Source: an uncultured Bacteroidota bacterium (GTDB lineage: Bacteria > Bacteroidota > Ignavibacteria > Kryptoniales > JAKASW01). From it: a stretch of DNA of 64,000 nt. The stretch spans positions 43,032-107,031 of the forward strand of contig CAWEES010000002.1 in assembly GCA_963808245.1 (NCBI GenBank). The letters are read 5' to 3'. Below the pieces are notes generated by a model. It did no database searches. It saw only the letters and a list, made by a program, of their open reading frames with translations, and was not told the DNA's origin. Position numbers and translations under genes: made by a program. Below are positions 22,132 through 63,245 of the stretch, in pieces (the stretch's first letter is position 1; the number at the start of each line of letters is the position of its first letter).

Positions 22132-22166
22132 GTCTCCTTTGTTACTTCTCAGCTTTATTCAAGTTG

Positions 22167-22181
22167 AACCCCTTCGGGGTT
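22167..22181. repeat. related hairpin AACCCC-TTC-GGGGTT
   Basis: The inverted repeat is visible in the sequence. The flanking TTG..GAG partly extends the similarity to the GTTGAACCC family. Confidence 0.6.
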
Positions 22182-61209: not shown

Positions 61210-61902
61210 TTACTGATTCTCCGCCTGATTGTTGTATGTTAATAAACTGATTTTTGTTCTTAATTGAAATAGCCAGACGTACAGAGCACTGAATCCTATG
61301 AGAGAGCCGTAAAATACAAATCTCATATTCATGTCCAGATACATCTTGCCGTTTGAATTGACGATCGGCGCGGCAGATCCGCCTCCGCCCGGATGGAGGC
61401 TGAACATTATTCTCGGCATGATGAAAACGAAGAAGGGAACAGTCACGAATGCTATGATCGAATAGACTGCTGAGAGCGAAGCACGTTTCTCTTCAACTTC
61501 CACCGCGCTGCGAAGAGAAAAGTACGCGCCGTATATCAGTAGAAGAACAAATATTGAAGTCTCACGAGGATCCCAGTTCCAGAAACTCCCCCAGTTGAAC
61601 TTCGCCCAGATTGAACCCGTGATGGTGGCCAGGACGCTGAAGATGAAGCCGAGCTCAGCCGCCGTCGCCGACTTTATATCGTACTTAATTTCTTTTTTCC
61701 GGAGATAACCGATGCCGTACCACATCGACATGAAAAATGCGAGAACGGCAAGCCAGGACATCGGGACATGAAAGAATATGATCCGCGCCTTGGGGCCCAG
61801 ACCGGGAATGTCCCCGATCGGCATTGCAAATCCGAGTGCAACCACTGCCGCTATCCAAATGCCAACTGCAATTTTCATCCACGTTTTCATTAGTCTCTCC
61901 AA
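61210..61902 (-). CDS. ccmC: heme exporter protein CcmC
   Basis: 230 aa. The WWD motif is WGSFWNWDPRETS, and conserved His-containing loops are present. Confidence 0.9.
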   Translation of the reverse strand: MERLMKTWMKIAVGIWIAAVVALGFAMPIGDIPGLGPKARIIFFHVPMSWLAVLAFFMSMWYGIGYLRKKEIKYDIKSATAAELGFIFSVLATITGSIWAKFNWGSFWNWDPRETSIFVLLLIYGAYFSLRSAVEVEEKRASLSAVYSIIAFVTVPFFVFIMPRIMFSLHPGGGGSAAPIVNSNGKMYLDMNMRFVFYGSLIGFSALYVWLFQLRTKISLLTYNNQAENQ

Positions 61903-62552
61903 ACAAAATCAAACAAAACAATAGAAAGGGTTGTAACCACGACACTGTAAGAAACCATTATCTTGATATCGTCGGCAGCATCCGCGATTGAAGCTCCTTC
62001 GACTGCAAGTCTCGTTGCATCTATAACGCTCATCAAAAGAGGAAGCAAGATTGGGAATGAGAGGACTGGGTATAAGGTCCCTTTCGAGTTCGCTTTAGAT
62101 ATGATAGCCGCAATAAAAGTCGAGGCAGAGGCAAGACCGAAACTCCCCAGCAAAACCGTGAGTAAAAAGATTCCCGGCGCCTTGACTGTGAAAGTCGGCA
62201 TCGTCAATAAATAGGCGGCGATTATCAAGCCATTAAGTACATAGATCAGCAGCGTGTTAAATGCGAGTTTGCCGAGTAGGACTGAAGTTGGTTTTACCCA
62301 TAGCTGCAGAGTCATGGCGGTTCCTCGTTCCTCTTCGCTCACAAAGCACCGCGAAAGCCCGCTCATCGCCGCGAAGAAAATGATGATCCATAGAATGCCG
62401 GCAGAAAGGCTTGGCGAGACGGTTTCGCCTGCAGTTGAGAAGAGGATTATTGATAGCGTGACTATGACAAACATGACCAGTGCGTTCAGCGCATAGCGTG
62501 TACGCAGTTCTCCATAGAGGTCTTTATAAAAAACCGCAACCGTTCCTCTCAT
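61890..62552 (-). CDS. ccmB: heme exporter membrane protein CcmB
   Basis: About 220 aa, polytopic and hydrophobic, overlapping the ccmC start by 13 nt. I set the start at the ATG at 62552 because the longer ORF (to 62696) runs through a tRNA gene. Confidence 0.75.
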   Translation of the reverse strand: MRGTVAVFYKDLYGELRTRYALNALVMFVIVTLSIILFSTAGETVSPSLSAGILWIIIFFAAMSGLSRCFVSEEERGTAMTLQLWVKPTSVLLGKLAFNTLLIYVLNGLIIAAYLLTMPTFTVKAPGIFLLTVLLGSFGLASASTFIAAIISKANSKGTLYPVLSFPILLPLLMSVIDATRLAVEGASIADAADDIKIMVSYSVVVTTLSIVLFDFVWRD

Positions 62553-62615
62553 GCATTGAAGATAGGCGGTGTCGGTTTGAGGTTCAAGGTAAGGATTAAA
62601 AACCGAGATAGGCTG

Positions 62616-62702
62616 CGGAGAGGGAGGGATTCGAACCCTCGATACCCCGAAGGGCATTCCGGTTTTCGAGACCGGCCGATTCAACCACTCTCGCACCTCT
62701 CC
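62616..62702 (-). tRNA. tRNA-Ser (anticodon CGA)
   Basis: The minus-strand sequence is GGAGAGGTGCGAGAGTGGTTGAATCGGCCGGTCTCGAAAACCGGAATGCCCTTCGGGGTATCGAGGGTTCGAATCCCTCCCTCTCCG. It has a 7-bp acceptor stem, an anticodon loop CTCGAAA, a long variable arm and a T arm GAGGG-TTCGAAT-CCCTC. Confidence 0.9.
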
Positions 62703-62708
62703 AGTAAA

Positions 62709-62946
62709 CTATTTTATGATTCCTTTTGATCTTAGCCAATTGTAGCCGTCTATCGATTTGAAGAACTTTTCTCTTGCTGCTGCTTCTTGTCTTGTTTTGT
62801 ACTCTTCAGAATAATGTAATACATACGGCAAATGAATAACGTACCTTGCCGCTATTATGAGTCTTCAGTCGTGATTTAATGTTCTCCGAATGTCCATAAT
62901 AATAAGTAGCATCTTTCAAGCTTCGCAAAATATAGGTAAAAAACAT
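62709..62946 (-). pseudogene. GIY-YIG nuclease-family small ORF, frameshifted
   Basis: Frame A (62946..62806) reads MFFTYILRSLKDATYYYGHSENIKSRLKTHNSGKVRYSFAVCITLF*. Frame B continues ..LPYVLHYSEEYKTRQEAAAREKFFKSIDGYNWLRSKGIIK* and ends at 62709. Together they give the GIY..YYG..R...H...E fold pattern of ~80-aa GIY-YIG proteins. Confidence 0.6.
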
Positions 62947-62977
62947 ATTCACCTCATTGCTGACGGGAACAAAGCTG

Positions 62978-63101
62978 GAGGGATTTCTCCATAAGGAGTC
63001 CCTACGGGAGAACCCTCGATACCCCGAAGGGCATTCCGGTTTTCGAGACCGGCCGATTCCTCCCTAGGAGTCCCTTCGGGAAACCACTCTCGCACCTCTC
63101 C
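62978..63101 (-). ncRNA. tRNA-Ser(CGA)-derived tRNA-like element or tRNA pseudogene with insertions in the D loop and T loop and no 3' acceptor strand
   Basis: It is identical to the intact tRNA-Ser(CGA) from nucleotide 1 through the T stem, except that TCCCGAAGGGACTCCTAGGGAGG replaces G in the D loop (plus-strand 63059-63081) and CTCCCGTAGGGACTCCTTATGGAGA replaces CG in the T loop (62986-63010). After the T stem it reads AGCTTTG instead of CTCTCCG. Confidence 0.6.
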
Positions 63102-63158
63102 ATTAATAAATCTTCTTTCAACCGGTGGCAAGGATGCCTGAGTTTTAATAAAGTCTTG

Positions 63159-63245
63159 CGGAGAGGGAGGGATTCGAACCCCCGGTACAGTTGCCTGCAC
63201 TCACGCTTTCCAGGCGTGCCAGTTCAGCCACTCCTGCACCTCTCC
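63159..63245 (-). tRNA. tRNA-Ser (anticodon GGA)
   Basis: The minus-strand sequence is GGAGAGGTGCAGGAGTGGCTGAACTGGCACGCCTGGAAAGCGTGAGTGCAGGCAACTGTACCGGGGGTTCGAATCCCTCCCTCTCCG. The anticodon loop is CTGGAAA, and it has a long variable arm and a TTCGAAT T loop. Confidence 0.9.

Follow-up and report, generated by a model that had tools for sequence, protein, structure and literature searches.

Palindromic inserts in a dead tRNA-Ser(CGA) copy flanking a decayed GIY-YIG nuclease cassette

Small dispersed repeats (SDRs), among them SDR4-6 of Nostocaceae (Elhai et al. 2008, Genome Res 18:1484), are modules of 21-27 nt, one of which, SDR5, inserts inside the palindrome HIP1, GCGATCGC (PMC4390886, PMC5861425); PMC5861425 reports them only in Nostocaceae. 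The locus examined here lies in a 64,000-nt stretch of DNA from an uncultured Bacteroidota bacterium (the window), where a dead second copy of a tRNA-Ser(CGA) gene, interrupted by two related palindromic inserts, is followed by a broken GIY-YIG nuclease gene and then by the live tRNA-Ser(CGA). We refer to such a nuclease open reading frame (ORF) with its spare tRNA copy beside a live tRNA as a cassette. SDRs are also found as nested copies and within structured RNA genes. The inserts considered here resemble SDRs in their length of 22-23 nt, their precise insertion at the dyad of TTCGAA and their nesting, and they are non-coding and far smaller than miniature inverted-repeat transposable elements (MITEs). 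They differ in belonging to another phylum (here the Fibrobacteres-Chlorobi-Bacteroidetes, or FCB, group) and in target, TTC^GAA in tRNA T loops, and probably also in sequence. The near-obligate link to GIY-YIG cassettes and spare tRNA copies has likewise no counterpart in the SDR description.

SegB, a free-standing GIY-YIG homing endonuclease of phages T4 and T6, cuts tRNA-containing DNA and drives the tandem amplification of tRNA plus segB (PMC13096335). Our cassettes share with it a GIY-YIG gene among tRNA genes, arrays of ORF plus tRNA piece, patchy presence and ORFs that decay readily. SegB has about 220 aa and includes a DNA-binding part, whereas the cassette proteins, known from sequence, are chromosomal and bacterial and comprise only a catalytic domain of about 80 aa of the UPF0213 type. 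The systematic palindromic interruption of spare tRNA copies seen here is not reported for Seg loci.

Repetitive extragenic palindromes (REPs) bear a GTAG or CGTC tag and occur together with a RAYT gene, in high copy number and mostly outside genes (PMC3733652, PMC3116915). Like REPs and REPINs, which the Y1 HUH transposase RAYT mobilises, our inserts are short hairpin palindromes, often in doublets, for which a structure-recognising enzyme is presumed to act in trans. They differ in being low-copy in the window and in targeting the tip of a hairpin. The aligned insert family has no terminal GTAG or CGTC tag, GTA appearing only as a variable loop, and no RAYT was seen at the loci, RAYT genes not having been searched genome-wide.

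Partial direct repeats of tRNA genes are also known from integrated elements (attL/attR) and from the 3' repeats of E. coli tyrT. In these cases, as in ours, partial tRNA repeats flank inserted DNA next to a live tRNA; a single 80-aa ORF as cargo, variable repeat length and palindrome-interrupted repeats set the cassettes apart. The cassette protein itself matches the Pfam GIY-YIG family and the UPF0213 structures 1ywl and 1zg2, which places it near Slx1, YhbQ and YazA. We know of no role for the bacterial UPF0213 proteins, a widespread family of about 80 aa with solved structures. YhbQ and YazA have been grouped in the Slx1 family of GIY-YIG nucleases (PMC7017083). Our literature searches returned nothing tying UPF0213 to tRNA genes or palindromic inserts, and no description of a UPF0213 nuclease together with spare tRNA copies and palindromic inserts at the T-loop dyad; this combination is seen in none of the SDR, REP/RAYT and SegB systems.

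The dead tRNA-Ser(CGA) copy and the gene beside it

The feature is the dead flank of a decayed GIY-YIG cassette and not a stand-alone tRNA-like gene. Coordinates are those of the window, and the locus is described on the minus strand, along which the order is tRNA-Ser(GGA), a 56-nt spacer, the dead copy, 274 nt, the live tRNA-Ser(CGA) and ccmB. The cassette comprises the following features.

62977..63101, minus strand: dead 5' copy of tRNA-Ser(CGA) (MAFFT alignment to the live tRNA)
63060..63081, minus strand: D-loop twin-hairpin insert, 22 nt, TCCC-GAA-GGGA / CTCC-TAG-GGAG (alignment)
62987..63009, minus strand: T-loop twin-hairpin insert, 23 nt, TCCC-GTA-GGGA / CTCC-TTAT-GGAG (alignment)
62709..62946, minus strand: GIY-YIG (UPF0213-type) nuclease pseudogene (Pfam, ORF pieces, ortholog in locus L125)
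62615..62702, minus strand: live tRNA-Ser(CGA), the downstream flank of the cassette (ARAGORN; Rfam, 57.6 bits)

The dead copy spans nucleotide 1 through the T stem with two interruptions and lacks the 3' acceptor strand, which is replaced. An earlier note on this DNA had already reported the missing strand; the alignment carries the homology to the live tRNA as far as 62977, one base past the 62978 given there. Identity to the live tRNA-Ser(CGA) through the T stem was borne out as well. The note's replacement of a G in the D loop was not, since the D-loop insert TCCCGAAGGGACTCCTAGGGAG is a clean insertion between GGTT and GAAT. The T-loop insert, which the note had replacing CG, is present, and the alignment places its 23 nt, TCCCGTAGGGACTCCTTATGGAG, between TTC and GAA (TTC^GAA, the caret marking the insertion point), with a single G>A change immediately after it. 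The D and T inserts are homologous to each other, as the note had proposed. Compared with a functional tRNA, the dead copy has neither a complete cloverleaf nor a paired acceptor stem, and its D/T elbow is not intact; ARAGORN and Rfam called no tRNA at this site, and both intact serine tRNAs were called.

The DNA between the two tRNA copies contains a GIY-YIG ORF in two frames, with pieces at 62806-62952 and 62709-62831, frameshifted by an 8-nt deletion between 62836 and 62835 relative to L125 (L-numbers denote retrieved comparison loci). The joined-frame translation matches Pfam PF01541 with E=4e-12, close to the E=1e-12 of the L125 ORF, and its PDB relatives are the two structures named above, both UPF0213. 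With about 80 aa, the cassette protein consists of the GIY-YIG catalytic domain without an extra domain. From these matches the window ORF is predicted to be a UPF0213 GIY-YIG nuclease gene of the Slx1/YhbQ structure-selective branch, now decayed. Intact versions were found in L125 (81 aa), L127, L261, L269, L277, L279 and L281, while several GIY-YIG ORFs of other relatives are likewise broken. The earlier note correctly recognised a duplicate and missed the frameshifted gene between the tRNA copies, which explains why the duplicate exists. An integrase-mediated att duplication does not fit the interval, in which the 238-bp GIY-YIG pseudogene is all that separates the two copies; of the ORFs listed next to the dead copy, none was recognised as an integrase.

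Syntenic loci were retrieved through CcmB homologues of up to 90% identity, the named matches being metagenome-assembled genomes of Kryptonia/Kryptoniota and Bacteroidota; the exact CcmB sequence of the window had no database record, and homologues were used instead. The Kryptonia-like L125 has the same order, with tRNA-Ser(GGA), a dead copy, an intact GIY-YIG ORF, live tRNA-Ser(CGA) and ccmB. Its dead copy (2407-2560) carries the same D and T inserts, with differences confined to the loops (the D-loop ortholog is TCCCGTAGGGACTCCGTAGGGAG), plus a third insert of another subfamily, TCAC-ATA-GTGA / TGGC-TTC-GCCA, whose position in the anticodon loop is exactly TCG^AAA. The dead copy thus went on receiving inserts after the lineages split, unless the window lost this one precisely. 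The window and L125 are roughly 90-95% identical over the whole unit, which starts with the first nucleotide of the dead copy and ends with the last of the live tRNA, whereas the flanking spacers are almost unalignable; a unit conserved while its spacers diverge is typical of a mobile or recently shared cassette. The two genomes differ by G/A in the variable arm, and within each genome the base is common to the dead and live copies. This sharing, with the derived G in the window, suggests gene conversion between the copies, parallel change and separate origin being the alternatives.

Other relatives carry differently built cassettes. In L121, L127/128 and L129, the ORF is downstream of the live tRNA and of another GIY-YIG type, and after it comes a 3' tRNA fragment with its interruption at TTC^GAA; the insert is a 30-nt twin hairpin in L127/128 and L129 and a 14-nt palindrome in L121. 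In L127 (2187-2471) the GIY-YIG ORF continues into the tRNA fragment that lies downstream of it and stops at a TAG arising from the GTA loop of the insert; the stop codon therefore comes from the insert. At the ccmB-linked tRNA-Ser locus the cassette is polymorphic: the window, L125, L121, L127 and L129 have it, and L123 and L131-133 do not. Presence/absence polymorphism and a cassette less diverged than its flanks are features of homing-endonuclease cassettes. Spare copies differ in size among the relatives, the shortest being 3' fragments of 29 nt and the longest near-full tRNAs, and they lie upstream or downstream of the ORF; what stays constant is an interrupted arm adjoining the GIY-YIG ORF, mostly with only the T loop filled. 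In L131-L133 (2640-2860), which have no cassette, the tRNA-Ser(GGA)/tRNA-Ser(CGA) pair is inverted relative to ccmB; the locus has been rearranged more than once.

Two neighbouring genes frame the cassette.

63158..63245, minus strand: tRNA-Ser(GGA), intact (ARAGORN; Rfam tRNA, 52.5 bits)
61890-62552, minus strand: ccmB, with the live tRNA-Ser(CGA) directly upstream (CcmB homologs and synteny)

The upstream neighbour tRNA-Ser(GGA), kept in the syntenic loci L121, L123, L125 and L127, is the probable start of the transcription unit.

Structure and distribution of the inserts

Each window insert consists of two adjacent palindromes of 11-12 nt with a 4-bp stem and a 3-4-nt loop. Across the family, read on either strand, purines predominate in the first loop (GAA, GTA, AAA, ATA) and pyrimidines in the second (TTC, TTT, TAC). 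The architecture does not change in the reverse complement of the insert; the feature is therefore strand-symmetric, which fits a DNA palindrome set on the dyad of another palindrome, TTCGAA. The variants found (TCCC/CTCC, TCCC/TTCC, TCAC/TCCC, TCAC/TGGC, TGCC/TCCC and TGAGCC/TGCGCC) all retain two adjacent perfect mini-palindromes, and the most frequent ones differ in their loops only. Across eleven variants, a twin-hairpin model gave 100% pairing, a figure partly built in because several variants were found via a perfect-hairpin filter, with double changes in 6 of 8 pairs. A model of one long hairpin gave 78% pairing and double changes in 1 of 9 pairs. The single long hairpin was rejected as the conserved feature by this covariation, despite being energetically preferred for the commonest variant.

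The earlier note had proposed looking for covariation in the inserts. The double changes are indeed present, but they are equally expected of a DNA palindrome. We regard it as improbable that the interrupted arm acts as RNA, whether as an untranslated-region structure that stabilises or processes the nuclease mRNA in a tRNA operon or as a tRNA-like decoy or scaffold. Such a role could draw on the compensatory stem changes, on the setting of the ORF, which has no evident promoter of its own and lies between same-strand tRNAs with an interrupted arm on the same strand within about 200 nt, and on the folding energy, as the T hairpin, weak by itself (RNA, -6.7 kcal/mol), becomes with the insert a strong structure of -19.8 to -23.8 kcal/mol (z about -2.6 to -4). 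However, the dead copy taken as a whole is no more stably folded than shuffled sequences (z=-1.5), it has no acceptor stem, and the ORF that it would serve is broken. Inserts also occur in both orientations and in fragment arrays without an ORF (L085, L198), and the extent of the spare copy is not conserved, from 29 nt to full length on either side of the ORF. The decoy with an enlarged D/T elbow put forward in the earlier note finds no support in spare copies that vary in extent and are filled mostly in the T loop only, with the anticodon loop filled as well in L125.

Within the 64 kb, the 15-mer CCCGWAGGGACTCCT has exactly two occurrences, and the dead copy contains both; no other part of the window resembles the inserts. 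In a scan of 596 Gb of genomes about 2,000 chance occurrences of this 15-mer are expected, so most of the 120 hits retrieved are noise, and the analysis was restricted to the 32 loci that carry the full 22-mer. These belong to Ignavibacteria, Bacteroidota, Marinimicrobia and Calditrichia (all FCB) or are unclassified. The search proposed in the earlier note thus revealed a dispersed family with TTC^GAA as its main target, although most raw hits were due to chance. About a third of the full motifs sit exactly at TTC^GAA in the T arms of partial tRNA copies beside an intact tRNA, and about 25 of 36 (orientation-blind count) lie outside T arms, in keeping with the non-tRNA contexts that the earlier note named as pointing to a dead duplicate, as is a locus present, absent or differently built in close relatives. 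Several of the motifs outside T arms cap long flanking stems, with stems of at least 5 bp in 31% versus 8% of controls. Comparison of filled and empty sites, that is, of spare copy and live tRNA, shows clean insertion and no target-site duplication; this absence, and a length of 22 nt, far below MITE size, separate the inserts from MITEs. Relative to the tRNA, four inserts are sense and three antisense, and inserts also occur in tandem arrays and nested (L085, L005). The usual insertion site is the T-loop dyad TTC^GAA, with D loops (also filled in L100 and L281) and anticodon loops used less often. The inserts are a dispersed family, restricted to FCB bacteria in the matches found, that is palindromic and inserts precisely and without duplication. 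The idea of a tiny insertion element in a dead duplicate was therefore essentially right, with a 22-nt family found at TTC^GAA in many spare tRNA copies.

A metagenome scan for GTTC plus insert yielded at least 120 loci and at least 139 T-loop sites. Among the sites listed, the right flank begins with RA in 126 of 136, and at least four of the five T-stem pairs are present in 103 of 136. An intact tRNA lies within 200 nt upstream of 42 listed sites, so the interrupted copies are mostly 3' fragments. In-silico deletion of the insert restores a full tRNA in four of the listed sites (L156, L198, L243, L246) and in L080 of the genome scan. These five copies would fit intron-like inserts that are excised from a functional tRNA in the manner of the small non-canonical tRNA introns known in Thermoproteales archaea. 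Transposed archaeal tRNA introns do resemble short related inserts at non-canonical tRNA positions, and the window inserts are short (22-23 nt), mutually related and in non-canonical D- and T-loop positions of one tRNA. Yet the host is bacterial (CcmB, FCB group), the dead copy lacks its 3' acceptor strand and has an intact paralogue 274 nt away, most filled copies are 3' fragments, both orientations occur, and no tRNA was found whose only copy carries an insert. The intron reading is close to refuted.

Several further observations concern the family or its look-alikes. L017 (874-1271, minus strand) is a full-length Chitinophagales tmRNA gene (Rfam, 98.9 bits; tag GNTQLAMAA) with a twin-hairpin-like 22-mer at 1179-1200, within a +26-nt insertion in the pseudoknot-1 (PK1) region; the module is apparently tolerated inside a functional tmRNA gene. 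L005 (1900-3050, minus strand), L085 (6150-6550), L228 and L138 hold tandem arrays with units of 60-410 nt, each a tRNA 3' fragment whose T loop carries 2-6 serial mini-hairpins with alternating GAA and TTC-like loops, which suggests repeated insertion or local amplification. L027 (4800-6000, minus strand; Ignavibacteria) has, in this order, a 5' fragment of tRNA-Thr(TGT) whose promoter region is duplicated along with it, a DUF805 RNA motif (RF03081), a 90-aa ORF, a solo twin hairpin and the intact tRNA-Thr, a different cargo between a dead 5' copy and a live tRNA. Nine loci of Clostridia/Oscillospiraceae (L023, L052, L053, L087, L101, L106, L107, L112, L118) share GTCCCGWAGGGACTCCTTAAC followed by runs of CAACTGT-like heptamers; these repeats are an unrelated family that merely contains the queried 15-mer. 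Seven hits on viral contigs, all in G+C-rich non-tRNA contexts, look like chance. Local templating of the insert from the T stem was rejected, as the identical insert occurs in T arms with unrelated stems. An origin of the 22-mer from the two ends of a longer element brought together, with one hairpin on either side of the ORF, was set aside, as in the loci read by eye no ORF had single hairpins around it, a systematic search not having been made.

Within the window, twin mini-hairpins are not enriched (14 observed, 6-14 in shuffles), and 3 of the 14 calls stem from the two inserts. Rfam, applied to the window and 33 loci, found no family at the inserts, and weak sX4 and plastid matches in the window reflect merely tRNA similarity. 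The sole other adjacent mini-hairpin pair with a G+C-rich second hairpin of TTCG type, at 22158-22179 (TTCAAGTTGAA and CCCCTTCGGGG), is probably chance or a terminator.

Coupling of the inserts with GIY-YIG cassettes

To detect GIY-YIG ORFs we used a hidden Markov model built from Kryptonia-like ORFs. Such an ORF was found in 48 of the 120 metagenome T-loop loci listed and in 1 of 88 control chance loci; this sole positive control, L100, turned out to hold a 5' tRNA-Ser fragment with a D-loop insert, followed by a GIY-YIG ORF and a live tRNA. Where the ORF lies within 200 nt of the interrupted fragment at the sites listed, it is always on the same strand. Its position relative to the fragment is upstream at 36 listed sites, downstream as in the window at 6, and on both sides in tandem arrays at 5. 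Tandem arrays of ORF plus tRNA piece are represented by L189, L198, L261, L269 and L277. The contigs of L122, L124, L126, L130 and L080 begin within or right beside a duplicated tRNA/GIY-YIG unit, and many GIY-YIG homologues are on contigs of 0.5-2 kb; tRNA/GIY-YIG arrays seem to break metagenome assemblies.

Cassettes were also collected blind to the insert motif. GIY-YIG homology led to L261, L269, L277 (a cultured Bacteroidales genome, the assembly of Tangfeifania diversioriginum), L279 and L281, each with the ORF, a live tRNA and twin hairpins of varied sequence breaking up the spare tRNA copies. Together with ccmB synteny, this approach gave 14 spare copies, every one of them interrupted; the T-loop site is filled in 13, and the remaining copy, in L281, has no T loop. 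Over all loci, most of them selected through the motif, 124 additional copies of the 3' end of a neighbouring tRNA were counted; the T loop is interrupted in 123 of them, and one is empty. Nearly every spare tRNA copy next to a cassette is interrupted by such inserts, and the live copy remains free of them.

These counts bear on a rival explanation to which we give a real but minor chance, namely that the twin hairpin is an independent miniature mobile element, SDR- or REP-like, mobilised in trans and targeting hairpin tips and palindrome centres genome-wide. Cassettes would then be linked to it merely as the main source of dispensable, insertion-tolerant tRNA arms, and the insert would have no role in them. 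Much of the distribution described above agrees with such an element: most full motifs outside T arms, several capping long stems; the copy within the PK1-region insertion of tmRNA; both orientations and nested copies; an anticodon-loop insert that is polymorphic (L125 filled, window empty); and frequent variants that differ only in their loops, as expected of decaying copies of a master sequence. Insert type, moreover, does not follow GIY-YIG clade. The filling of spare copies is harder to reconcile with it, as even 30-nt fragments in the motif-blind set are filled, and neutral insertion at such a rate would hit the roughly 45 live tRNA genes too, with heavy costs. Nor was a candidate transposase identified, and the window has just two copies in 64 kb, both in one 125-nt pseudogene. 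The all-or-none filling of tiny fragments, set against these two copies, argues for coupling between insert and cassette.

Proposed role of the inserts and its implications

The explanation that we favour, and hold to be somewhat probable on the sequence evidence, is that the dead copy is the flank of a selfish GIY-YIG cassette and that the palindromic inserts act at the DNA level to disarm spare tRNA copies. A small selfish nuclease cassette would be lodged at the tRNA gene as dead copy, nuclease ORF and live tRNA, and the inserts would be made or retained because they disarm the spare copy. This could work in three ways: wrecking the D/T elbow may prevent the spare copy from acting as a tRNA; splitting the TTCGAA palindrome and the arm hairpin may remove a plausible target of a structure-selective nuclease; and shortening the unbroken stretches of the direct repeat that the spare copy forms with the live tRNA may slow the recombinational loss of the cassette. 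Only interrupted copies would then persist, with selection keeping the live tRNA clean, and any RNA from the dead copy would be a by-product and not a functional tRNA mimic.

A number of observations weigh against this explanation. Most counts come from motif-selected loci, the motif-blind sample amounting to about ten cassettes. Between the window inserts a 50-nt block of uninterrupted homology persists, which leaves the proposed benefits incompletely met, and fragments without a T arm (L281, L100) are interrupted all the same, so T-loop immunity alone does not explain the pattern. The 22-mer also occurs in non-tRNA hairpins and in the tmRNA gene, with a GIY-YIG ORF in 1 of 32 such loci, and can hence spread independently of a cassette in cis. 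Co-divergence of insert type with GIY-YIG clade was not seen, the same type being found with distant clades. The catalytic domain of about 80 aa shows no evident DNA-recognition module, and energy models favour one long hairpin for the commonest variant.

A bolder proposal, which we put forward as speculative and rather unlikely, is that UPF0213 nucleases and 22-nt twin hairpins form one previously unrecognised mobile system in FCB bacteria. The Slx1-like nuclease would attack hairpin tips and palindrome dyads of tRNA-gene DNA and would create or mobilise the twin-hairpin module there. If so, no smaller non-autonomous partner of a nuclease-driven element would be known than the 22-nt insert, which would have its natural homing site in tRNA T loops, and UPF0213 proteins would gain a function.

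For annotation, these loci yield pseudo-tRNAs that tools miss or miscall, and GTTC-TCCCGNAGGGACTCC is a handy marker motif for finding them. Should the coupling of inserts with cassettes hold, it would define a very small palindromic insert (22 nt) whose target, the hexamer most conserved in tRNA genes, is hit to the single base, and would bear on the mechanism by which tiny elements insert, a question last raised for the cyanobacterial SDRs. With one tRNA copy clean and every spare interrupted, the cassettes would offer a natural system for the study of repeat stability and gene conversion over tens of bases. The coupling would also give UPF0213 its first biological context, as selfish cassettes at tRNA genes.

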